64,000 nt of DNA from Minisyncoccota bacterium. GTDB taxonomy: Bacteria > Patescibacteriota > Minisyncoccia > UBA6257 > JAGOQP01. Below, in pieces: positions 1,780 to 52,006 of this stretch (position 1 is its first letter; each line of letters starts with the position of its first letter). The DNA lies in NCBI GenBank assembly GCA_041674185.1, contig JBAYWE010000004.1, forward strand, positions 186-64,185. The letters run 5' to 3'. Below the pieces are notes generated by a model. It saw only the letters and a program-made list of their open reading frames with translations. It made no database searches and was not told the origin of the DNA. A program made the position numbers and the translations under genes.

Positions 1780-1852
1780 GCACCCGTAGTGAAATGGATT
1801 ATCACAACTGCCTTCGAAGCAGTTATTGGGGGTTCGAATCCCTCCGGGTGTA
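1780..1852 (+). tRNA. tRNA-Arg (anticodon TCG)
   Basis: Cloverleaf folded by hand: acceptor GCACCCG/CGGGTGT, D-stem GTGA/TCAC, anticodon stem ACTGC/GCAGT with loop CTTCGAA, T-loop TTCGAAT, discriminator A. No encoded CCA. Confidence 0.8.
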
Positions 1853-1860
1853 CAATTTAA

Positions 1861-1885: not shown

Positions 1886-2023
1886 AATTAAAAACCCGAG
1901 AACGCAAACTGCTTTGCGTTCGTGAGGATTCGAACGACGGAGTGTATGCGAACAGCTGTGAGCATAACGAGTCGGTGGTCAACCCGAGTTGAGCGACGGC
2001 GAAACGAGAGGTGAGACCGAATC

Positions 2024-2043
2024 CCTGCCTACCGGCAGGCAGG
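2024..2043. repeat. 20-bp near-palindrome CCTGCCTACCGGCAGGCAGG (copy 1 of 4)
   Basis: Identical or near-identical 20-mers at 2024, 35556, 51376 and 51966. Here it interrupts the duplicated tRNA-Arg 3' end. Confidence 0.9.
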
Positions 2044-2140
2044 CCTCCGGGTGTACAACTATAAAAATACATCATTTTCTTAAATGGTGTGTTTTTATAG
2101 TTAGCATATCGTAGATTCGAAGGGTATTCGAAAAGTATCC

Positions 2141-3439: not shown

Positions 3440-3638
3440 CAAGATGAAAAATTACCCTTCTGTTTAAAGAGGGGTGATTTTTTATTTATGTATGCGGGTA
3501 AAACAAATAAACTGCTTTATTTGTGTGCGAAATCGGACGACGGAGCATATGCGAGTAGCAACGAGCATGGTGAGTCGGTGGTTAGACAAACTTTTGCGAC
3601 GGCAAAAGTTTAGTCGAGACCGATTCCGCTTACCCGCT
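3440..3638 (+). repeat. tRNA-3'-end-linked structured element, copy B (attached to tRNA-Gly)
   Basis: A terminator-like hairpin comes first. The left arm GCGGGTAA [ACAAATAAA-CTGC-TTTATTTGT] GT GCGAAATCGGAC equals the reverse complement of the tRNA-Gly 3' end with the CTGC hairpin inserted after nt 8. The core is homologous to copy A (CGACGGAGCATATGCGA..GAGCATGGTGAGTCGGTGGT..GCGACGGCAAAAG). The right arm GACCGATTCCGCTTACCCGCT is a direct copy of the tRNA-Gly 3' end. Confidence 0.75.
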
Positions 3639-30452: not shown

Positions 30453-30566
30453 AGCAAGTCCTCCTTAATTAATTTATAAATGTTCGTTGGTGCGGGGGTT
30501 TTGTATATTTTTATATACCGTCCGCGTGTTTATACGCTACCACGTTTCTATAAAAAAACAATATAA

Positions 30567-30605
30567 TAAAACATTCTCACATTCTTGAGAATGTGAGAAT
30601 GTTTT
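30567..30605. terminator. Perfect 15-bp palindromic hairpin terminator (AACATTCTCACATTC-TTGA-GAATGTGAGAATGTT)
   Basis: Downstream of the glycosyltransferase gene, flanked by A/T runs. Confidence 0.65.
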
Positions 30606-30659
30606 GTGATGAATTATTATCAAAACTCTAGTTTCTGATCCCTATCCCCTAATTCCTCC

Positions 30660-35486: not shown

Positions 35487-35494
35487 ACTCTAAA

Positions 35495-35719
35495 CGCAAA
35501 CATTAAATCCTAATCCACCGGGAATTTCACATCGCACTTCGTGCTCTTTAGAAACCCTGCCTACCGGTAGGCAGGCCTCGGTTTCTAACATCCTTCGAAT
35601 TGTTTTCCTACACGGGGAACTACAAGTTCCCCGACCCCCTCCGATTCAAATCCCGCGCGAGATCTTTCATCATATAAAATAAAAATATCCCTACTAGCGT
35701 AAGGATATTTTTATTTGTG
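35495..35719 (-). repeat. tRNA-3'-end-linked element, divergent copy E (attached to tRNA-Glu)
   Basis: Read on the minus strand after tRNA-Glu. A terminator hairpin (AAAATATCC...GGATATTTT) comes first. CGGGATTTGAA follows, which is the reverse complement of the tRNA-Glu T-arm. The 20-bp palindrome sits inside the inverted repeats TTAGAAACC/GGTTTCTAA. The degenerate duplicate of the tRNA-Glu 3' end (AAATTCCCGGTGG) closes the copy. Confidence 0.5.
35556..35575. repeat. 20-bp perfect palindrome CCTGCCTACCGGTAGGCAGG (copy 2 of 4)
   Basis: Exact palindrome flanked by the extra inverted repeats TTAGAAACC/GGTTTCTAA. Confidence 0.9.
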
Positions 35720-35793
35720 TGACCCCACCGGGATTTGAACCCGGGTTACAGGAATGAAAATCCTGTGTCCTGACCAGGCTAGACGATAGGGCC
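35720..35793 (-). tRNA. tRNA-Glu (anticodon TTC)
   Basis: Acceptor GGCCCTA/TGGGGTC, D-stem GTCT/GGAC, anticodon stem CAGGA/TCCTG with loop TTTTCAT, T-arm CCGGG-TTCAAAT-CCCGG, discriminator A. No encoded CCA. Confidence 0.75.
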
Positions 35794-37049: not shown

Positions 37050-37148
37050 TACGTTTTGTATTCAAGCATTATTTAATTATATTTTCAACTCCCGCGCTAC
37101 ACATTCTCACATTCTCAAGAGTGCGAAAATGTTCTTTTGTTATTTTTG

Positions 37149-43499: not shown

Positions 43500-46400
43500 C
43501 TATACAGGTAAATATTCACGATAAACTCGTACCGTTTCTTGATAAATTGATTCTATTAAACGTTCTGCCTGTATCTGTTCCACAAAACCTTTTTGGATTA
43601 AAAGTAATCTTACATTCTGACGAATACGTGCTTTTATAGTCTCATTATTTGTCCAATCAATTGCAAGATCGCGGCGTATTCGCTTTGTGAGATCTTTTAC
43701 AAATTCTTTTATATCAATCCCTGCATTTTTAAGATCTGGATCTGCAATAAGAGTATCATAAAAAACAATCTCTTCAGAAGACAAGCCAAGATTTACACTT
43801 TCTTGATCTAACTTTTTTATTTCATCCGCTATCTCAAGGAGGCGTTTTATAATCTCTGCCGAGCTAATAACATTGTTCTCATATTTTTCTATAAGATCAG
43901 TAAGAAGAGTGATCATTGTTTCATATCTTGCTTTATTTTTTCTCATTCGTGCAACAATCTCTTTATTAAGTAATTTACGAATCACGTCGACTGCAAAGTT
44001 CTTAAACTTCACCTTCTTTATTTCTTCGCTAAATCGCGGATCAAAAATAGAAATGGTTTCTTTTTCTCCATCTTCATTTGCAAATAAATCTATAACTCCT
44101 TCTGCCTGTATTGTGTCCTGAATTAAATTGCGAATAGCACTTTCGGTCTCTTCAGGAAATATAGCATGAGGCACAACTGTTTGTTTATTAATTGCACCAC
44201 GAATTGCTTGAAAAAACTGTATATCAGTAGCGATGTTCATTGCTTCTTCTCCGGGCATAACTAGCGCGTGTAATTTTGAGAGTTTTGAAACTGCACCTAT
44301 ATATTTCATCTTTCTATCATCCGAGAGAATCCCATGATCTGAGATTACTTCGTTGATACTAGCTTGAAATAATTCCACCAGTTCAATGCCTTTCTTCTTT
44401 TTCCATTCTGAAAAAGAAACATTTCCAAAGAAATCACTTGTTGTCTGATAAAGTTTTTTCATCTCTAAAATAACCTCATCAAGAGGGATGAGTGCGTTCC
44501 GCTGAACATCCGAATCATAAATGGCAAGCGCCTTTTTTAGGTTATCTGCGACACCGATATAATCAACAATAAGTCCACCTGGTTTGTCTTTATAAACACG
44601 ATTTACACGGGCAATTGCCTGCATAAGCCCATGATTCTTGAGTGGTTTATCAAGATACATGGTATGTAGGTTTGGGACATCAAATCCAGTAAGCCACATA
44701 TCACATACGATAGCGATTTTTAGTGGATCATTTGTTTTCCTAAAATGTTTTTCTAACTTCTTTACGTCTCGTTCAGTTTGAATGTCTGATGCAAAATCTT
44801 CACTTTTTGAAATAACTACTGCACACTCTGGAGCCCCTGGTATTTTTTTAATTGCATTATACATTTGAACCGCAATAGAACGGCTCATGGTAACCACCAT
44901 CGCTTTACCTTCAATAGGACGAATAGTGTAGTGAGCAACTATATCTTTTGCAATTTGTTCAATACGGCTTGGTGCACCAACTACTTTTTCTAATACTGCC
45001 CATTCTTTTTGAGCTCGCATTCTTTCGTCAATCACAATCTCACCCAAAAGATCATCGAGTTTACTATCAATAAATCTATCCGCTAAATGAAGTGGAATAA
45101 GACGTCCTTCATAGAAAATTGGAACCGTCGCACCATCTTTTACTGCCTGTCCGATTTTATATGAACTCACAATATCTCCAAATACACGAACTGTATCGTG
45201 ATCATTATGAGAAATGGGGGTTCCTGTTACACCCAAAAAGCTCACGTGAGGAAGTGCGCGACGGACGTTTCCTGCAAGCATACTATATTGAGTGCGATGT
45301 GCCTCATCAGTAAGTACAATAATATTTTCTCTCTCAGTAAGAACATTGTGTGCATCTGGATCTTCTTGAAATTTTTGGATTGTAGTAAAAATAAGCTCAC
45401 TTCCCAGATGAGAGAGTTTATCTTTTAGATCTTTTATTGTCGTGGCTCGTTTTGCGAGAGTACCATATCCTGTACGACTAAATGTTTTAAATAACTGATC
45501 ATCAAGATCTTCGCGATCAGTAAGAAACACATATGCAGGACTTTTTAGTTCCGGAATACTTTTTGTCTTATTTACATAAAAAACCATAGAGAGTGACTTA
45601 CCAGATCCTTGCGTGTGCCAAAAAACACCGATCTTTCGATCTTGATTACCAAGCACTGAATGAATTGTGCTTTCAATAGTTTTGTTTACTCCATAATATT
45701 GGTGATAAAGTGCCATCTTCTTTGTATAAGTCACCGCATCTCCATCACTATCCGCCTCAAAGATGGTAAAGTTTTGAATAACATCAAGTAAGCGGACTTT
45801 ATCAAAAAGACCTTTTGTTAATACCTCAAGTTGAGTGGTGTCTCTTGGTGAATCATTTTCTAATTCAATTCCCTTCCATGTTCCGTATCTTTCCCACGAT
45901 GAAGATATTGTTCCGTGTCGAGCGTCAGTTAAATCACTTAGACAAATAATTTGGTTATATAAAAATAGTTTTGGAATTTCTTTTTTGTAATATTCAATAT
46001 CTCGATATGCTTGTCCAATTGATGCTTGTTCACGAGTGGGGCTTTTAAGTTCAAACACTCCAAGGGGGATACCATTTACAAATAAAACAGCATCTAGGCG
46101 ACATATATTATCAATCCCCTGAACAGTGAATTGATTCACTATAAGAAACTCATTTGCCTCTGGGTTTGAGAAATTAATAAGCTTTACCAATTCCGTTTTT
46201 TCTTCTCCGTCTTCTTTCCATGTTTTTTTCACTCCTTCGGTAATATTAAAATATATCTCTCTATTGCCCAGCATAAGATCGGGGTTGTGGAAACTAGAAA
46301 TATCATTCACTACCTGTTCTGCCTGCATTTGGGGAAGTTGTGGATTTAAACGACGAACAGCACCAAGGAGATGATTTTTTAGCACAACCTCACGGAAGTT

Positions 46401-46523
46401 TTCACGTTCCGCATTGGGTTGTCCTGGATTTATCTCTGGACCATATAAGTACTCATAACCCTGGCTTTGTAGCCATTGGATAAGAGATTGTTCTGTTAAG
46501 TTATTTTCGTTAAGGGGGTTCAT
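43500..46523 (-). CDS. hsdR: Type I restriction enzyme R subunit (HsdR)
   Basis: 1007 aa. N-terminal nuclease region, SF2 helicase motifs including DEAH (VLTDEAHRTQ). Last gene of the operon. Confidence 0.85.
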   Translation of the reverse strand: MNPLNENNLTEQSLIQWLQSQGYEYLYGPEINPGQPNAERENFREVVLKNHLLGAVRRLNPQLPQMQAEQVVNDISSFHNPDLMLGNREIYFNITEGVKKTWKEDGEEKTELVKLINFSNPEANEFLIVNQFTVQGIDNICRLDAVLFVNGIPLGVFELKSPTREQASIGQAYRDIEYYKKEIPKLFLYNQIICLSDLTDARHGTISSSWERYGTWKGIELENDSPRDTTQLEVLTKGLFDKVRLLDVIQNFTIFEADSDGDAVTYTKKMALYHQYYGVNKTIESTIHSVLGNQDRKIGVFWHTQGSGKSLSMVFYVNKTKSIPELKSPAYVFLTDREDLDDQLFKTFSRTGYGTLAKRATTIKDLKDKLSHLGSELIFTTIQKFQEDPDAHNVLTERENIIVLTDEAHRTQYSMLAGNVRRALPHVSFLGVTGTPISHNDHDTVRVFGDIVSSYKIGQAVKDGATVPIFYEGRLIPLHLADRFIDSKLDDLLGEIVIDERMRAQKEWAVLEKVVGAPSRIEQIAKDIVAHYTIRPIEGKAMVVTMSRSIAVQMYNAIKKIPGAPECAVVISKSEDFASDIQTERDVKKLEKHFRKTNDPLKIAIVCDMWLTGFDVPNLHTMYLDKPLKNHGLMQAIARVNRVYKDKPGGLIVDYIGVADNLKKALAIYDSDVQRNALIPLDEVILEMKKLYQTTSDFFGNVSFSEWKKKKGIELVELFQASINEVISDHGILSDDRKMKYIGAVSKLSKLHALVMPGEEAMNIATDIQFFQAIRGAINKQTVVPHAIFPEETESAIRNLIQDTIQAEGVIDLFANEDGEKETISIFDPRFSEEIKKVKFKNFAVDVIRKLLNKEIVARMRKNKARYETMITLLTDLIEKYENNVISSAEIIKRLLEIADEIKKLDQESVNLGLSSEEIVFYDTLIADPDLKNAGIDIKEFVKDLTKRIRRDLAIDWTNNETIKARIRQNVRLLLIQKGFVEQIQAERLIESIYQETVRVYREYLPV

Positions 46524-47383
46524 GATGTGTGTATTCTTGAAACCATATCTTTTACATCAGACATCATTTCTTTTATATCTGATAAAACAGGAATTGTCGA
46601 TTTATTCCCCACAATTTCTTTTGTCTCATTTTGTCTTATATTTGTCATCGGCGATGAATAAAGTTTACCAATCGCATCTAGTATAAAATCAAGCTTTTTC
46701 TTATATTCATCATCGTCTTTATCAGAGAATAGATTCTCAACTATCTCCTTGTAAGCTTCTAGGGAACGGGCGATAGAGGCCTTAAACTCATATTCTTCAA
46801 TTAATTTTTCTCCTCGTGAATATTGTCCGCTGATAAAGATTTCAAAAAATATAATTGGAGACGTAGCTGCTAGTTTAACTAAAAAATTTATCTCAAATAT
46901 ATTTCCGCCATTAGATGTCTGCCAGATAACTATTCCAGCAACCGATAAAAGAAGAGCCATACTAGTACCGAATAACCACCAAAACCAACTCTTATTACTT
47001 AATTTTAATCCGTCTCTAACCTTATCGAATGAATTGGAAAGTTTTTCATTAGAAATAGTTCCCAATTGTTGTAGTGAAAGACTTTGGATTTCGTCACTTT
47101 TTGTTTTAAGTTCATCTACTACTTTCTTGGTTTCTTCGGTTAAGGTTTGCTGTTCCTTGGTGGTCTCTTTTAAAGTAGCAATTTCCCCAATCAAGTTTTC
47201 TAGCTCTTCCTTCTTTTTAGGAATCGCATCTATATTTTCTTTTTGTGCTTGTACTTCAGCAATTAATGTATCTATTACTTGTTTTTGGGTGATAAAATTT
47301 TGTACTAAAGCGTTAAGATCTCCTAGCGCCCTTAGGTTTTGATCTATATCTGCTAACTTTTGTTGTACTTCTTTTGTTTTCAT
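46520..47383 (-). CDS. Coiled-coil / two-TM protein embedded between hsdS and hsdR; function unknown
   Basis: About 130 aa of N-terminal coiled coil, two TM helices (WFWWLFGTSMALLLSVAGIVIW and SPIIFFEIFISG), then a C-terminal soluble domain. Overlaps the hsdR start by 4 nt. Confidence 0.5.
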   Translation of the reverse strand: MKTKEVQQKLADIDQNLRALGDLNALVQNFITQKQVIDTLIAEVQAQKENIDAIPKKKEELENLIGEIATLKETTKEQQTLTEETKKVVDELKTKSDEIQSLSLQQLGTISNEKLSNSFDKVRDGLKLSNKSWFWWLFGTSMALLLSVAGIVIWQTSNGGNIFEINFLVKLAATSPIIFFEIFISGQYSRGEKLIEEYEFKASIARSLEAYKEIVENLFSDKDDDEYKKKLDFILDAIGKLYSSPMTNIRQNETKEIVGNKSTIPVLSDIKEMMSDVKDMVSRIHTS

Positions 47384-47387
47384 AAAT

Positions 47388-48701
47388 TTAAATTAATTTT
47401 GCTAATAATTGATCTCTGGATTGTTTTAATTTTTGATTTTCGAGGAGAGATTCTTTTATAAAATTAAACATCGGTTTTATAGTTCCATTAAAACTATAAG
47501 TAATGTTTTCTAGAGGTATTAACATTTTATAATTTTCTATTAATTGCTTATTAATATGTTGCTGGGCACCACCAGATGCTCCTGAAATTATATCTAAAAT
47601 ATTATTTTTGATACATAAATATATATATTCATTTAAAATATTATTTTCGTCATATATACCAACAACTGATTGATTAGCTGTTGATTCAATCTCAAGACGA
47701 CTGACTTGCCCAAGTGTGGCTCCAGTTATAGCAAGGAGGGTTGTCCCTGAATTCATTATGCTTGCATTAGATTTTTTAAGACCTGCTTCTGATATATACT
47801 CGGTTGCTTTAATAATTCTGAGGTTATTTATTTCGCCAGAATTGATCCATGGAATGCTCCCTCCCCAGAATTCTTTTTTATCTCTCGATGGGGTTCCTCC
47901 TAGTGTAACGGTTGCTAATCGTGATATTTTTTTCATTTCCCACCCTTCAGGAATTTTTCCCATTTCGCTATCAATCATTTTTACTTTTTCATAACCTGGA
48001 AAATGAAAGTTTACAAACCATTCATTAAAAATAGTTTGTGCTGTGGTTTCAAGATTTTTAATTATCTTATTGTTGTTTTCAATTTTCTCATCATATGCAC
48101 TTAAAATTTCTGAAATCTTTTTTTGGATTGAGAGGTTTGGAATATTTATCTCGTAATCACGCAACTGTTCTAAAGATACATTTTTTATAGTACTACCAGA
48201 AGCATTATTTGTTATATGTTTTTTAAACCTATTATCTAATAGTACATAATAAAAATAATTTAAATCAAAACCATCACTAATATTGATATAGGAAACACTT
48301 TTACCTAGTATACATTTCTCGTTCTTGTATTTTGCTAAATTACCGATTGTTCCATTAATAGAAAGCAAAAGGGTTCTTTCAGTTAAATCTTTTTTGTGTT
48401 TAATGTATTCTGACTCATTTACTTTTTTTGTATCTTTTTTTATTGAAACATAACCATTATCTAAATTATTTCCATTAATAAAATAATATTCCCCATTGTC
48501 GTCATATACTGGAGTCCCATGTAAACCATCACCAATTCTACTGGTAACATCTATTAGTTTATAAGTGGCCCTCGGTATCTTTTCTATTTGTTTCAGTAAA
48601 TTGCTCATATTTTTGATCTGTGGATAACTCTTGATTTTGGTGGTGGTGAATGTTATACTCCTTTCATACCTGCCCGAGGTCAATTCGGGATAACTTTCCA
48701 C
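47388..48701 (-). CDS. hsdS: Type I restriction-modification specificity subunit (HsdS)
   Basis: Two target-recognition domains separated by a conserved central repeat, ending with the conserved C-terminal coiled region. 437 aa. Confidence 0.75.
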   Translation of the reverse strand: MESYPELTSGRYERSITFTTTKIKSYPQIKNMSNLLKQIEKIPRATYKLIDVTSRIGDGLHGTPVYDDNGEYYFINGNNLDNGYVSIKKDTKKVNESEYIKHKKDLTERTLLLSINGTIGNLAKYKNEKCILGKSVSYINISDGFDLNYFYYVLLDNRFKKHITNNASGSTIKNVSLEQLRDYEINIPNLSIQKKISEILSAYDEKIENNNKIIKNLETTAQTIFNEWFVNFHFPGYEKVKMIDSEMGKIPEGWEMKKISRLATVTLGGTPSRDKKEFWGGSIPWINSGEINNLRIIKATEYISEAGLKKSNASIMNSGTTLLAITGATLGQVSRLEIESTANQSVVGIYDENNILNEYIYLCIKNNILDIISGASGGAQQHINKQLIENYKMLIPLENITYSFNGTIKPMFNFIKESLLENQKLKQSRDQLLAKLI

Positions 48702-48712
48702 AAAAACCTGAC

Positions 48713-49378
48713 CTAGTCAGGTTTTTGTTTTTCTACCTTGGCAATATGCTTTTTAATATTCTGTGCATTTATGACTAAATCAGCCGACTCTCTGAATTTT
48801 GTCAAAATATATCCACCCTTCACTATAATCACTTTTTTACCTTTTCGTTTTAAGTAATTATTTAAATACACAAAATCAGCATCTCCAGAGAAAATACAGA
48901 AAGTATTATAGTGTTCAAGCATCTTTAGCGCATCTACAGAAATCTCTACATCAAAATTTGATTTTCTGATTTCTATAAATTTTTTGCCATCTATATCTGT
49001 TTTAACATATTTATCAGGAATATATTCGCCCGTCTCAAAATAATGCCTAATTTTTTGAATGTCTTTAGTCATTACATCTCTTTTGCCAAAAACTTTTCGC
49101 ATAACATAGGTAAAACTGAGAGACTTTTGATTTTTAGGATTTTCTCCATAGTAAATTCTCGCCCTCTCACTAAAAATATCCAAAAATGATTTAAGTTTTT
49201 CTAAGTCTATTGATAACTTCTCATCGGGAGCGAGGAGTTTATTCTCCCAGTCTTGATTGTCATTTTGAAACCACTTATTTACGTTTGAGAAATCGACAAA
49301 AGTGAAAATCTTCCCGTAATCTTCGGTGATCTGTAGCTCATCTTTGATAAACTTCTTTTTTAGGTCTTGCAAATCCAT
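48713..49378 (-). CDS. NYN-domain (LabA/PIN-like) predicted ribonuclease embedded between hsdM and hsdS
   Basis: NYN signature segments (IFTFVDFSNV..., FDVEISVDA..., CIFSGDADFVYL..., KKVIIV). Confidence 0.55.
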   Translation of the reverse strand: MDLQDLKKKFIKDELQITEDYGKIFTFVDFSNVNKWFQNDNQDWENKLLAPDEKLSIDLEKLKSFLDIFSERARIYYGENPKNQKSLSFTYVMRKVFGKRDVMTKDIQKIRHYFETGEYIPDKYVKTDIDGKKFIEIRKSNFDVEISVDALKMLEHYNTFCIFSGDADFVYLNNYLKRKGKKVIIVKGGYILTKFRESADLVINAQNIKKHIAKVEKQKPD

Positions 49379-49382
49379 ATAT

Positions 49383-51182
49383 TTAAAATCCTAACTCTTT
49401 TAGATTTTTCTCAATATCTTTTTCTAATTCGCGGCCTTTTGTGAATGCTCCCCGCAATTCTTCTGAAAATTTTATCATCTTTTCTTCAAATGTAACTCCA
49501 TCATCCTCAACGTCTGCAAGTCCAACATAGCGTCCAGGAGTTAATGTATATCCATTTTTCTGTATTTCTTTTAAAGTTGCTGATTTACAAAAACCTGAAA
49601 TATTTTTATATTCCCCAACCTCTTGTTCACCCCGCCACGCACGAACGGTGTCCGCAATTTTTTGAATTTGTTCTTTATTGAAAATCACTTGTTTACGAGA
49701 AATTTGTTCAAAAGTATCTCGTGCATCAATGAATAATGTTTCTCCAGTGCGTTTACGAAAACGATCACCATTTTTGTTTCTAGCCAAAAACCAAAGGGAT
49801 ACAGGAAGCGAAACATTATAGAAAAGTTTTGATGGACATGAAATAATAACGTCAACCATATCTGCTTCAATAAGTTTTTGTCTTAGTTCACCCTCTTTAC
49901 CGGATACAGCAAGGGCACCATTTGGCATAACGAATCCAGCATTACCATTTGGTGCTAAATGGTGAGCAAAATGTTGTACCCACATGAAATTCGCATTGCC
50001 ACTCGGTGGAGTGCCCAATGTTATGCGCGGATCATTATCGGCAAGTTTGGATGGTTCCCAATCTGCATTAAATGGAGGATTAGCAATAACAAAATCTGCC
50101 TGCAAATGAGGGAATTTGTCTTGATAATAAGTATTTCCTAATTCAATTTTTCCAGATAGACCACGAATTGCAAGGTTCATTTTACAAAGTCGCAAGGTTG
50201 TTGGATTGCTTTCTTGTCCGTTAATTGCAAGTCGTGACGAATCCTGATGATGATCTCGCAAGAACTCACCCATGGATACAAACATTCCTCCACTTCCACA
50301 TGCGGGATCAAGTACTCGAGCATTTTCATATGGTTCAAGAATCTCTACTAAAAGTTTAACAATAGATCGTGGGGTAAAAAATTCTCCTCCACGCTTACCT
50401 TCGGATGAAGCAAATTGACCAAGAAAATATTCATAGATACGTCCGAGGATATCCTTCTCTCTATCAAAGTTGTGATCAAACGAAATACGAGAAAAGATAT
50501 TTATAAGTTCACCAATTACTGCATGATCAAGAGTTGTTCTTGTATAAATTTTAGGAAGCACTCCTTCAAGTTCTGTTAAGTTATCACTCTCAATATAATC
50601 CATTGCCTTATCAAGAATCTGTCCAATATCTGATTGCATTGTTTTTGTCTGCAAATATTCCCAACGAGATTTTTCGGGGACATAAAATACTCCAGCGCTT
50701 TTATAAAAATCTTTTGTCTCAAGAATTTGAGCTCGAGCTTTTTCATCTGCAACATAAAATTCTTCATTTTTAGGATCATGAGTGAGCTCATCAAGTTTCT
50801 CGCGTCTTTTATAGAATGCATCTGAAATATATTTTAAGAAGAGAAGACCAAGTACAATATTTTTATACTCGGAAACATCAATGTTACCACGAAGCTTATC
50901 TGCTGCGGCCCAAAGTTCTTTTTCAAAATCAAGATCTTTATGATGATTTTTTTCCAAAACCTTCTTTGTTGTCTTCTTTTGTTCGCCTCTAATGCGTTCT
51001 TGGAGTTCGGGGGGGAGAGTTGACCTAGGAATGAGGTAGTTGCGACCCATTTTCTGAGCCGGTATCTTTCCTTCGGAAATCTGTTTATGCACCGCAATAC
51101 GGCTTATCCCGAGCATTTTTGCCATCTCTGCAGAGGTTATGAACTGTGATTTGTGTGTTTCCATGATCTTATAATAGCACAA
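49383..51182 (-). CDS. hsdM: Type I restriction-modification methyltransferase subunit (HsdM) with N-terminal helix-turn-helix extension
   Basis: N-terminal excisionase/MerR-like HTH (SAEMAKMLGISRIAVHKQISEGKIPAQKMGRNYLIP), HsdM N-domain, SAM-binding motif I (LDPACGSGGM), motif IV NPPF. Confidence 0.85.
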   Translation of the reverse strand: MCYYKIMETHKSQFITSAEMAKMLGISRIAVHKQISEGKIPAQKMGRNYLIPRSTLPPELQERIRGEQKKTTKKVLEKNHHKDLDFEKELWAAADKLRGNIDVSEYKNIVLGLLFLKYISDAFYKRREKLDELTHDPKNEEFYVADEKARAQILETKDFYKSAGVFYVPEKSRWEYLQTKTMQSDIGQILDKAMDYIESDNLTELEGVLPKIYTRTTLDHAVIGELINIFSRISFDHNFDREKDILGRIYEYFLGQFASSEGKRGGEFFTPRSIVKLLVEILEPYENARVLDPACGSGGMFVSMGEFLRDHHQDSSRLAINGQESNPTTLRLCKMNLAIRGLSGKIELGNTYYQDKFPHLQADFVIANPPFNADWEPSKLADNDPRITLGTPPSGNANFMWVQHFAHHLAPNGNAGFVMPNGALAVSGKEGELRQKLIEADMVDVIISCPSKLFYNVSLPVSLWFLARNKNGDRFRKRTGETLFIDARDTFEQISRKQVIFNKEQIQKIADTVRAWRGEQEVGEYKNISGFCKSATLKEIQKNGYTLTPGRYVGLADVEDDGVTFEEKMIKFSEELRGAFTKGRELEKDIEKNLKELGF

Positions 51183-51375
51183 ATTAATTTGGAATGCAAG
51201 TTAACATAGGTTAACCACACTATGGTAAAAGATCACTGTTATATGTGTATATTATTCAATACTCAATAATGATTGTTCTATAAACATAGGAGGAGAGTTC
51301 GCCCGCGAGTCTTTTTGTTGCAACAAAAAGCTCTGGGCACCAACTCGCTGTACTCACAGCTGTTCGCACATGCTC

Positions 51376-51395
51376 CCTGCCTACCGGCAGGCAGG
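51376..51395. repeat. 20-bp near-palindrome CCTGCCTACCGGCAGGCAGG (copy 3 of 4)
   Basis: Lies between copy C of the tRNA-linked element and an extra partial core copy (51318..51370). Confidence 0.9.
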
Positions 51396-51421
51396 CGTCA
51401 TTCGAATCATCTAAATAGAAA

Positions 51422-51599
51422 GGAGATTCGGCTACAAGTCGTTTTATCTTCCGCTAAAACGCTCGCAGCCCGCCCCTCGTGGCACTCCTTACCACCTCGT
51501 TCGTCGCGCAACACTACGGTCTTCGAATCCCCCACGTGGATGAAGCAGTTCATTCACTCTCTCCGCAAACAAAATACCCCCTTACGGGGTACTTGTTTG
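51422..51599 (-). repeat. tRNA-3'-end-linked structured element, copy C (attached to tRNA-Ser)
   Basis: Read on the minus strand after tRNA-Ser. A long hairpin comes first. The left arm CGGAGAGAG [GAATGAA-CTGC-TTCATCC] ACGTGGGGGATTCGAAGACC is the reverse complement of the tRNA-Ser 3' end with the CTGC hairpin inserted. The core is homologous to A and B (GACCGTAGTGTTGCG...GAGGTGGT...GCGAGCG...). The right arm is GTAGCCGAATCTCC. A second partial core copy (GAGCATGTGCGAACAGCTGTGAGTACAGCGAGTTGGTG) lies beyond the palindrome. Confidence 0.65.
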
Positions 51600-51686
51600 C
51601 GGAGAGGGGGAGATTCGAACTCCCGGGGGCGGTTAAGCCCCACAGCTTTAGCAAAGCTGCACAATAGACCACTCTGACACCTCTCC
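51600..51686 (-). tRNA. tRNA-Ser (anticodon GCT)
   Basis: Acceptor GGAGAGG/CCTCTCC, anticodon stem CAGCT/AGCTG with loop TTGCTAA, long variable arm GGGGCTTAACCGCCCCC, T-arm GGGAG-TTCGAAT-CTCCC, discriminator G. Confidence 0.8.
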
Positions 51687-51691
51687 ATATT

Positions 51692-51937
51692 TTATTGTAA
51701 ATTATACTTTCTCTTTATCTCTTCACGTTTATATCCTTTTTTGTATTCTTTTTCAAGGCAACGAGCATCTTCTTCTGTTTTACATTCTATATATTCTAAA
51801 AGTGTTAATGGTATTCTATTTTTTAATGACTGAGTGTGTCCAGCGTTATGCTCTAAAATTCTTCGCGAGACATTATTTGTCTTACCAATGTATATCCCGC
51901 AATCTTTCTCACTTTTTAAAATATATACAAAGTACAT
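51692..51937 (-). CDS. Standalone GIY-YIG nuclease-domain protein (YhbQ/UPF0213-like, 81 aa)
   Basis: YFVYILKSEKDCGIYIGKTNNVSRRILEHN matches the GIY-YIG catalytic motif (GIY ... YIG ... R ... E ... N). There is no DNA-binding extension. Confidence 0.65.
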   Translation of the reverse strand: MYFVYILKSEKDCGIYIGKTNNVSRRILEHNAGHTQSLKNRIPLTLLEYIECKTEEDARCLEKEYKKGYKREEIKRKYNLQ

Positions 51938-51951
51938 AGTTATATGTAATT

Positions 51952-52006
51952 CTGCACAATAGACCCCTGCCTACCGGCAGGCAGGACTCTGACACCTCTC
52001 CATATT
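51952..52006 (-). pseudogene. Duplicated 5' fragment of tRNA-Ser (nt -5 to +30) interrupted by the 20-bp palindrome
   Basis: AATATGGAGAGGTGTCAGAGT [CCTGCCTGCCGGTAGGCAGG] GGTCTATTGTGCAG. It matches 51657..51691 exactly outside the insertion, then diverges into the GIY-YIG gene. Confidence 0.8.
51966..51985. repeat. 20-bp near-palindrome CCTGCCTACCGGCAGGCAGG (copy 4 of 4)
   Basis: Inserted between positions 16 and 17 (D-loop) of the duplicated tRNA-Ser 5' fragment. Confidence 0.9.

Follow-up and report, generated by a model that had tools for sequence, protein, structure and literature searches.

A 20-nt palindrome shared across bacterial phyla and its association with tRNA-gene modules of a minimal GIY-YIG protein

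The window, which is the whole 64-kb stretch of DNA analysed here, belongs to a Candidatus Paceibacterota (Patescibacteria) metagenome contig (ENA ERZ27247358, k141_858402) and carries the same short palindrome at four sites, among them duplicated pieces of tRNA genes. This raises the question of what kind of element the palindrome is and which partner it has. A pattern scan located the palindrome, CCTGCCTACCGGYAGGCAGG (hereafter PAL), at 2024-2043, 35556-35575, 51376-51395 and 51966-51985, and a fifth site was absent from the window even at up to three mismatches. The number of copies expected by chance is zero, as 100 dinucleotide-preserving shuffles of the window gave no match. The copies at 2024, 51376 and 51966 read CCTGCCTACCGGCAGGCAGG, and the copy at 35556 is a T variant, CCTGCCTACCGGTAGGCAGG, which forms a perfect palindrome. 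The original prediction, made from the letters of this stretch, had described exactly this set of three identical copies and one perfect palindrome. PAL has about 70% G+C, against 38% in the window, and is predicted to fold into a hairpin of -11 to -14 kcal/mol. Three of the copies are present, with identical flanks, in an independent Logan assembly of SRR6484325. The features of the window related to the four copies are listed below.

1780-1853, plus strand: intact tRNA-Arg(TCG), with which copy 1 is compared
1890-2023, plus strand: tRNA-linked core A, structured cargo between tRNA-Arg and its 3' duplicate
2017-2057, plus strand: PAL-interrupted duplicate of tRNA-Arg (T-loop, 3' acceptor strand and trailer), from comparison with the tRNA-Arg at 1780-1853
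2024-2043, no strand assigned: PAL copy 1, a 20-nt insertion in the duplicated T-arm and 3' end of tRNA-Arg
35490-35718, minus strand: element E, downstream of tRNA-Glu (35719-35793, minus strand)
35556-35575, no strand assigned: PAL copy 2, the perfect palindrome, at the apex of the inverted repeat TTAGAAACC/GGTTTCTAA in element E
51290-51565, minus strand: cores C and D, downstream of tRNA-Ser
51376-51395, no strand assigned: PAL copy 3, a 20-nt insertion within core C
51599-51686, minus strand: intact tRNA-Ser(GCT), which closes the GIY-YIG module on its downstream side
51692-51937, minus strand: GIY-YIG nuclease ORF of 81 aa, with its stop codon 5 nt before the 5' end of tRNA-Ser
51952-52006, minus strand: duplicate of the first 30 nt of tRNA-Ser and of 5 nt of leader, with PAL between nt 16 and 17
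51966-51985, no strand assigned: PAL copy 4, followed after 28 nt by the GIY-YIG start codon
52018-52046, minus strand: promoter-like site TTGATT-17-TATTAT upstream of the interrupted tRNA-Ser fragment, by consensus match only

Copies 1, 3 and 4 each correspond to a clean 20-nt insertion when compared with an uninterrupted counterpart in the window, and none of these three sites shows a target-site duplication; copy 2 has no uninterrupted comparator, and the comparison covers the other three. Alignment to the intact tRNA-Arg confirmed that copy 1 splits the duplicated 3' end of this tRNA. The duplicate reads ccgaatc-PAL-cctccgggtgtaca, the tRNA reads ttcgaatccctccgggtgtaca, and the junction gaatc/cctccggg of the intact gene appears in the duplicate as gaatc-PAL-cctccggg. 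In copy 4 the reference is the intact tRNA-Ser, agacc/actctgac on the plus strand, and PAL is found at that point in the duplicate, between nt 16 and 17 of the 5' fragment, as had been proposed. Copy 3 lies in the context GATTCGAATGACG-PAL-GAGCATGTGCGAAC, and both flanks are contiguous in the paralogous cores A and B, which read GACGGAG at the junction where core C reads GACG-PAL-GAGC. This copy had been placed between core C and a partial duplicate, but it is actually within core C itself. Copy 2 was found, as described before, inside element E between the inverted repeats, and this element terminates in a degenerate duplicate of the 3' end of tRNA-Glu. All four copies leave intact tRNAs and plausible CDSs uninterrupted, also in agreement with the original prediction. 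The proposal of a miniature palindromic insertion is in agreement with these comparisons, since PAL is a precise 20-nt addition relative to the adjacent intact tRNAs or to cores A and B.

The tie between PAL and the tRNA-linked repeats A-E, which was also part of that proposal, was not upheld. These repeats lack homologues elsewhere, as an nhmmer search with the alignment of the A, B and C cores returned none among about 250 other loci. Cores C and D are missing from a close relative whose tRNA-Ser is identical. The cores A-E were also considered as decayed nuclease genes, and this was ruled out, as the GIY-YIG profile matched nothing in their six-frame translations (best E = 0.34). In the search against Rfam 15 the tRNAs alone passed the gathering score, and around copies A and B matches at E up to 10 were at chance level only.

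The 81-aa protein encoded beside copy 4 possesses a GIY-YIG domain (PF01541, E = 3.6e-13 with Pfam) that spans residues 1-78, and it therefore consists of the catalytic domain only. NCBI names it "GIY-YIG nuclease family protein" of Candidatus Paceibacterota. Residues Y5, Y16, G18, R26, H30 and E62 are invariant in an alignment of seven sequences (A1), and the profile built from it matched the solved structures 1zg2 (BH0048, 3.4e-12) and 1ywl (EF2693, 1.4e-10), followed by SLX1 at 1e-5. BH0048 and EF2693 are UPF0213 proteins of unknown function. Eighty-nine homologues were found at E <= 1e-5, with 48-100% identity, and those with a named source are mostly from Patescibacteria. Stand-alone Slx1-like domains of prokaryotes are regarded as the minimal ancestral form in a 2006 phylogenomic survey (PMC1564403), whose consulted passages contain no mention of a link to tRNAs or palindromes. 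In the literature searched, no function is assigned to the UPF0213 or stand-alone Slx1-like family, and papers on GIY-YIG proteins together with tRNA, hairpin, UPF0213 or YhbQ do not describe the arrangement seen here. Nor did any relevant paper turn up in full text for the 20-mer or its variants, for 12-14-mers or for the peptide LPAGRQ.

PAL is not restricted to the Patescibacteria. An exact scan for CCTGCCTRCCGGYAGGCAGG, with one genome per species, detected at least 120 loci, and about 2 matches would be expected in 596 Gb at uniform base composition (our own arithmetic). The palindrome is unchanged in at least 10 bacterial phyla. Among the matches listed, 41 are, by record title, from Bacteroidota, 30 from Patescibacteria, 9 from Planctomycetota/PVC and 8 from Omnitrophota, with further ones from Nitrospirota, Bdellovibrionota, Ignavibacteriota, Chloroflexota and "delta" and "gamma" proteobacterial MAGs; taxon labels among MAGs are partly unreliable, as illustrated by locus L094, labelled Gammaproteobacteria and with a Daviesbacteria-like TrpRS. 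Isolate genomes of Winogradskyella, Olivibacter, Flagellimonas, Longitalea and Flavivirga also possess PAL, and it was found in 48 stretches of viral contigs. Each genome contributed 1-3 loci among the matches listed, and the flanks are unrelated between loci. The variants G/C, G/T, A/C and A/T were counted 79, 25, 23 and 2 times, respectively. When the copies were oriented by the asymmetric variants, position -1 was G in 33 of 48 and position +1 was G or T in 43 of 48.

Clustering of the ORFs within 3 kb of PAL at 168 loci identified GIY-YIG as the most recurrent family, and no transposase-like cluster was detected in the same set. In the loci obtained by searching for PAL, eight of ten GIY-YIG ORFs are located at most 150 nt from it. 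The reverse sample consisted of 80 metagenome loci picked solely by homology to the GIY-YIG protein of the window, and 33 of them contained PAL (up to three substitutions) within 400 nt. After collapsing the proteins at 90% identity, PAL was present at most 110 nt upstream in 28 of 74. A tRNA lies within 400 nt in 54 of the 80 loci, typically 0-50 nt downstream and on the same strand. The suggested link between PAL and the neighbouring GIY-YIG protein therefore holds statistically as well as across phyla.

The module in the window consists of a PAL-interrupted tRNA 5' fragment, the GIY-YIG ORF and the intact tRNA, in this order. The same layout recurs in a WWE3 genome (L052, tRNA-Lys), a Saccharibacteria MAG (L093, tRNA-Leu, with two PALs), a Bacteroidetes MAG (L025, tRNA-Arg) and a viral contig (L166). 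A 20-nt insertion relative to the adjacent intact tRNA was found also in L025, L052 and both copies of L093, and likewise a precise insertion in most of 29 further aligned modules. Across the 29 mapped modules the start codon follows PAL at a distance of 12-58 nt. The stretch ahead of the ORF aligns with the leader and 5' portion of the tRNA that lies downstream, reaching about nt 28-52. The insertion point is mostly after tRNA nt 15-27, with a mode at 20-23, which is the 3' boundary between D-loop and D-stem; examples are GGTA^GAGC, GGATA^GAGC and GTAGA^CGC. Modules that appeared to lack PAL often contain a decayed or variant form of it, such as CCTGCCTG...CAGGCAGG with a different centre, the transition-riddled TCTACCTGTCGGTAGACAGG or the 8-nt remnant CCTGCAGG.

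In general form, this 5' arrangement can be written as tRNA 5' part a, PAL, a short continuation b', GIY-YIG ORF, restored a' and b c, where the last three pieces (a', b and c) form the intact tRNA behind the ORF. A mirror 3' form was also found, with intact tRNA, cargo, T-loop copy, PAL and a copy of the 3' end. In L243, TTCGAGTC-PAL-TCTCCCTCGGCAC comes after the intact tRNA-Leu; L141 and copy 1 of the window have the same form, and copy 1 is inserted at the T-loop position seen in L243 (TTCGAGTC^). Tandem arrangements exist as well. On a 2.58-Mb contig (L238), at least three units of PAL, b' and an ORF ending in a' precede an intact tRNA-Arg, and in L215 and L252 the ORF is separated from the intact tRNA by a second PAL-interrupted fragment. 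In every case the inserted unit can be expressed as PAL, a short copy of what lies past the cut, cargo and a copy of what lies ahead of it. Such a structure would fit break repair from an existing module, or one crossover with a circular molecule that bears a tRNA fragment interrupted by PAL.

The association is specific to one group of the nucleases. The 84 GIY-YIG proteins compared fall into two main clusters, and PAL accompanies 28 of 42 in one and 0 of 36 in the other. Nearest-neighbour concordance for PAL was 0.87, against 0.53 in permuted data, and none of 2000 permutations reached 0.87. Those members of the PAL-free cluster that lie ahead of a tRNA possess GC-rich hairpins of other kinds within their duplicated fragment (L193, L200, L213). 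The clade of the window was sampled as seven genomes with differing neighbour genes, and in all seven the order is nt 1-16 of tRNA-Ser(GCT), PAL, nt 17 to about 28, the ORF and the intact tRNA-Ser; the loci with this window-like architecture are L172, L252, L254, L257, L258 and L260. Among the seven orthologous modules the DNA of the ORF is on average 67% identical (63-83%), against 97% for PAL, whose variation is confined to position 13. Because PAL is so much more conserved than the gene beside it, it must be either under sequence-specific constraint or continually renewed, and a disruptor for which any insertion will do would not be compatible with this conservation. PAL is thus a stereotyped component of the tRNA-gene modules of one minimal GIY-YIG clade.

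Copies retrieved with PAL as the query are mostly solitary, and about 90% of them have no GIY-YIG gene within the 8 kb examined. A viral contig with at least six copies likewise lacks a GIY-YIG gene in the stretches examined. The original prediction had PAL always inside or beside tRNA-derived sequence; recognisable tRNA-like sequence was found at only 9 of 183 PAL-searched sites, although at none of 915 random control positions, so the enrichment stood and the generality did not. An annotated tRNA lies within 500 nt of 16 of 127 PAL sites against 6.6 expected. This is a 2.4-fold enrichment only, and tRNA proximity was dropped as a general rule; the strong signal is the GIY-YIG gene. Inverted repeats of at least 6 nt flank 11% of PAL sites against 2.6% of controls, and examples of PAL at a hairpin apex are the terminator loop in L111 and copy 2 of the window. 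PAL is also nested within another PAL, at CCG^GC, in L020, L026, L059, L065 and L110. Perfect abutting direct repeats of 7-14 nt were found at 5 of 181 sites, against 0.12% of controls.

Solo copies also occur in frame in conserved genes, where they encode (G)LPAGRQ. The TrpRS of L094 has seven extra residues (GLPAGRQ) from 21 nt, which are PAL plus one G, and this insert is missing from PDB 6ncr and from the 11 closest homologues (77-83% identity). As the 21-nt insert keeps the reading frame, no splicing is needed. The RfbB homologue of L032 contains a nested pair of PALs. In low-GC loci the LPAGRQ frame is used in seven of eight PAL-spanning ORFs; long PAL-spanning ORFs in high-GC loci were set aside as uninformative, as every frame is open there. 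Altogether, PAL is a discrete inserted sequence that is shared across phyla, conserved far beyond its surroundings and present also alone and inside genes.

The explanation that we favour, at about even probability, is that PAL is a conserved cis element of a selfish module of a minimal, Slx1/UPF0213-type GIY-YIG nuclease residing in tRNA genes, and that it may also spread alone; this reading rests on comparison of sequences. The nuclease would open tRNA genes at loop-to-stem junctions, either at the D-loop/D-stem boundary or at the 3' side of the T-loop. A PAL-led unit would then be copied in by break repair, which is formally equivalent to integration of a circle with a PAL-interrupted tRNA fragment. 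In both the 5' and the mirror 3' architecture the inserted unit begins with PAL precisely where the tRNA gene was opened, and because it brings along a replacement for the part of the tRNA that was lost, a working tRNA is rebuilt. PAL may disrupt the leftover copy of the target and act as the recognition sequence of the nuclease, and tandem arrays could arise from repeated hits on the rebuilt tRNA. Solo PAL would be a non-autonomous element of 20-21 nt, probably mobilised in trans, with hairpin loops, PAL itself and occasionally genes, in frame, as its targets. Near-identical bacterial tRNA genes may enable homing of the module across phyla, and this conservation would permit the presence of an identical 20-mer in many of them. 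In the window, copy 4 would belong to a complete tRNA-Ser module and the other three would be harmless solo insertions in non-functional tRNA-like sequence.

Several observations count against the nuclease-module reading. Among them are the roughly 90% of PAL-searched copies with no GIY-YIG gene in the 8 kb examined, the viral contig rich in PAL that lacks the gene in its examined stretches, and the unreliable taxon labels among MAGs. GIY-YIG enzymes hydrolyse DNA and cannot rejoin it. The net insert is 20 nt in non-coding sequence and 21 nt in TrpRS, and at 5 of 181 sites it is flanked by direct repeats (7-14 nt); these cases do not fit one common geometry of cutting and joining. The rebuilt tRNA retains an intact target, and self-cutting is a difficulty.

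Other origins of the insertions were considered and rejected. A serine recombinase of the IS607-like type acting at a duplicated GG core fits copy 1 (GGA-GG-[18 nt]-GG-GATTC), but fails, by manual inspection, at 51376 (GAC-G/PAL/G-AGC) and at 51966. A MITE is not in agreement with the absence of a fixed-length target-site duplication wherever an uninterrupted copy is available. A palindrome made de novo at a break was discarded, as fold-back repair would mirror the local flanks and not yield one fixed sequence. As for an intrinsic terminator, only the copy at 51966 was flagged, weakly, and no T-run was found in the flanks of 127 copies. A tRNA intron with a bulge-helix-bulge does not apply, as the copies of the window sit in fragments or repeats beside intact tRNAs.

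The main rival of the nuclease module is that PAL is an independent, loop-seeking mobile palindrome that is moved by another enzyme and survives in dead tRNA fragments and tRNA-like repeats as safe places. The distance of most copies from any GIY-YIG gene, the copies nested in PAL or sitting in hairpin loops, those of terminators included, the PAL-dense viral contig and the three of four window copies that are not next to the nuclease gene all speak for it. However, the other nuclease clade has duplicated tRNA fragments too and yet possesses PAL in 0 of 36 cases against 28 of 42. The stereotyped position of PAL, kept at the orthologous site while the ORF drops to 67% identity, also speaks against it, and no transposase-like family recurs among the ORFs within 3 kb of PAL at the 168 loci. 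Clade specificity and orthologous conservation weaken this alternative, which we consider unlikely, roughly one chance in five. Less probable still, at somewhat above one chance in ten, is a role at the RNA level, where PAL forms a hairpin in the 5' part of the transcript, about 20-30 nt before the start codon, and the solo copies are by-products. It could act in stability or processing of a nuclease mRNA made from a tRNA promoter, in attenuation of read-through towards a nuclease gene that is toxic, or in preventing mispairing of the dead tRNA half. The roughly constant distance from PAL to the ATG, the stability of the predicted hairpin, the promoter-like site upstream of the fragment, the terminator scan that flags PAL plus GGTCTATTGT, and the different GC-rich hairpins that occupy the same place in the other clade are in agreement with such a role. 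Nonetheless, any GC-rich hairpin would suffice for it, and the 20-mer is identical across phyla and in diverged orthologues; most modules have no U-tract after PAL, and precise solo insertions, nesting, mirror 3' forms and in-frame copies are left unaccounted for. Variants compatible with wobble pairing on the sense strand (G/T) exceed the A/C variants by 8:2, which is not significant (p = 0.11) and includes several related modules, and this bias was not retained as evidence for an RNA hairpin.

Two simpler readings fare worse. The original prediction had allowed for PAL being scattered over the genome like a general REP-like element, and PAL is indeed palindromic, GC-rich within an AT-rich genome and intergenic in many of its copies. 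A generic repeat, terminator or operator with neither mobility nor a link to tRNAs and nucleases is nevertheless very improbable, considering the few copies per genome, the lack of a GTAG head and of a RAYT-like neighbour, the exact insertion, the in-frame genic copies, the identity across phyla and the strong linkage to GIY-YIG. An adaptor, a chimera or another artefact of sequencing or assembly might be suspected from the fact that matches are mostly in metagenome-assembled genomes; with PAL in the isolate genomes of five genera, in two independent assemblies of the organism of the window and at orthologous positions in genomes of different studies, and with the TrpRS reading frame intact, its probability is negligible. 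Overall, the earlier proposal is partly supported, and the partner of PAL is the module of GIY-YIG gene and tRNA fragment rather than the repeats A-E.

Some known systems resemble the nuclease module in part. Rickettsia palindromic elements, reportedly described by Ogata et al. in 2000, are said to be palindromic selfish DNA inserted in frame in protein-coding genes; they are reportedly about 100-150 bp long and found in Rickettsia only, whereas PAL has 20-21 nt and is pan-bacterial. The REP/REPIN-RAYT system (PMC3116915, PMC3337134) is similar to PAL in that a short palindromic non-autonomous element accompanies a small single-gene enzyme flanked by the palindrome, with solo copies dispersed in the genome; PAL is likewise a short imperfect palindrome, four times in 64 kb. 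However, the REP partner is a HUH/Y1 (RAYT) transposase and that of PAL a GIY-YIG nuclease. REPs have a GTAG/GTGG head, and PAL shows only R at -1 and G/T at +1 in its logo, with GTAG solely internal in the T variant. REPs reach tens to hundreds of extragenic, lineage-specific copies, in contrast to one to few PALs per genome, also in genes, and a 20-mer common to many phyla. The position of the PAL module in tRNA genes, with partial gene duplication, also sets it apart from REP/RAYT.

[quoted passage not shown] It thus offers an experimental precedent for what the nuclease would do in the PAL module. Both systems have a GIY-YIG gene beside tRNA genes and share the catalytic domain. SegB possesses DNA-binding domains beyond it, of the sort that gives Seg-type enzymes a long asymmetric target, unlike the 81-aa protein of the window; a conserved palindrome is not reported for this phage enzyme, and the PAL modules sit on the chromosomes of Patescibacteria, Bacteroidota and further phyla. 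Donor resistance of the Seg type would fit the architecture, in that PAL interrupts the leftover tRNA copy at the junction. The Slx1-like/UPF0213 proteins (BH0048, 1zg2; EF2693, 1ywl; PMC1564403) are the closest by sequence and equally minimal, without accessory domains, but a link to tRNA genes or palindromes, both present in the PAL module, is not described for them in the literature searched. The GC clusters of yeast mitochondria (PMC4478555) are, like PAL, short GC-rich palindromic insertions in an AT-rich genome with evidence of mobility and nesting. They are restricted to fungal mitochondria, longer and more varied, with no dedicated nuclease gene known and no tRNA-gene module.

We tentatively suggest, though we hold it less likely than the reading of PAL as a cis element, that PAL and the Slx1-like gene of about 250 bp represent a new class of minimal autonomous element, driven by a GIY-YIG enzyme and homing to tRNA genes across phyla. 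Its palindromic derivative of 20-21 nt would be smaller than any transposable unit known, inserting without duplication at loop-to-stem junctions of hairpins and in frame into essential genes. If the nuclease-module reading is true, the very widespread stand-alone Slx1/UPF0213-type GIY-YIG proteins, whose annotation goes no further than "GIY-YIG nuclease family protein", would gain a function and a DNA partner, and a near-universal sequence, the tRNA gene, would be the landing pad that brings the same 20-mer to Bacteroidota, Patescibacteria, Planctomycetota and phages. Annotation would benefit as well, since proteins with GLPAGRQ inserts, odd "93-nt tRNAs" and partly duplicated tRNAs would share one cause. 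In addition, a nuclease this small, aimed at a defined palindrome or structure, may serve as a tool.

Five tRNA-linked repeat elements, A to E, are present in the window, at positions downstream of tRNA-Arg, tRNA-Gly, tRNA-Ser and tRNA-Glu:

1890-2023, element A
3490-3625, element B
51290-51420, minus strand, element C
51425-51565, minus strand, element D
35490-35718, minus strand, element E

The T-arm of the local tRNA recurs in inverted orientation on the 5' side of each element (GGATTCG in A, GAAATCGG in B), and the T-loop and 3' end of that tRNA recur in direct orientation on the 3' side. The RNA folds of A and B are equivalent, with an acceptor-like closing stem and z values of -5.6 and -3.3, respectively. 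The search of these elements against Rfam gave no matches, and no homologues were detected among the approximately 250 other loci, which had been collected through the 20-nt near-palindrome (PAL) or the GIY-YIG protein. Elements C and D are missing from a close relative whose tRNA-Ser is identical.

The tRNA-Ser gene and its surroundings in the window comprise the following features:

43500-51182, minus strand, type I restriction-modification cluster
51599-51686, tRNA-Ser(GCT), identified by ARAGORN
51813-51842, minus strand, sigma-70-like match TGGACA-18-TAGAAT (10/12), a consensus match only

This tRNA-Ser(GCT) was not among the Rfam tRNA matches of the window at gathering score. The sigma-70-like match is located within the GIY-YIG ORF, approximately 125 nt upstream of tRNA-Ser, and, judged from sequence, could be a candidate promoter of its own for the rebuilt tRNA-Ser. 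The restriction-modification cluster directly adjoins the tRNA-Ser 3' repeats, and includes genes encoding HsdM with an N-terminal HTH_17 domain, an NYN-domain protein, HsdS, and HsdR (1007 aa). In the close relative L252, the genes found in the 1.3 kb beyond tRNA-Ser are unrelated to this cluster; therefore, the cluster may be an island located at the 3' end of tRNA-Ser.

The window also possesses another palindromic repeat of approximately 47 nt (ACATTCTCACATTCT...), with two copies in inverted orientation and 81% complementarity between them:

30556-30610, first copy
37101-37147, second copy, directly adjoining tRNA-Cys

Outside the window, in-frame copies of PAL were found in protein-coding genes of six loci:

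L094, 1225, TrpRS gene
L032, 2815, RfbB gene
L018, 5955, FtsK-like gene
L098, 1291, histidine kinase gene
L060, 2000, conserved gene
L105, 5886, conserved gene

The residues gained by conserved genes from in-frame PAL are (G)LPAGRQ. In the TrpRS of L094 the insert corresponds to exactly 7 residues, and the 11 closest homologues do not carry it. The RfbB of L032 gained approximately 15 residues from a nested PAL pair, and its frame is restored by two additional A's in the outer PAL copy.

The TrpRS of L094 shares 77-83% identity with Daviesbacteria proteins, whereas its record is labelled 'uncultured Gammaproteobacteria'. The gene content of L094, and of other TPA MAG records with this label, contradicts the taxon label. 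Therefore, the phylum counts for PAL loci, which were drawn from record titles, are approximate.

Many solo PAL copies are embedded in tandem arrays of short repeats, with units 6-8 nt long (for example, GGTGAGA or GAGTGAT). Loci with solo PAL inside such runs include L125, L164, L071, L080, L090, and L133, among others, and sometimes an identical repeat unit abuts both sides of the palindrome.

PAL was also found in tRNA genes and tRNA fragments of other loci:

L238, 2330-3130, contig Ga0207871_100001 (2.58 Mb), tandem modules
L242, ~2430-2500, two decayed elements in a single tRNA-Lys fragment
L155, 2239-2330, viral contig IMGVR_UViG_3300033148_008720, phage-borne tRNA-Met with PAL in the variable loop

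In L238, the intact tRNA-Arg is preceded by at least three tandem units, each with a PAL-interrupted tRNA-Arg fragment and a GIY-YIG ORF; the ATG and the final codons of the ORF are built from tRNA-derived sequence. In L242, the first decayed element is a PAL copy with five transitions (TCTACCTGTCGGTAGACAGG), and the second, CCTGCAGG (8 nt), a possible footprint of excision or decay, resembles PAL without its central 12 nt. A decayed form of the PAL-bearing tRNA-Met gene of L155 was present in L126. Since ARAGORN still identifies the L155 gene as a 92-nt tRNA, this tRNA may accommodate PAL in the manner of a long variable arm.
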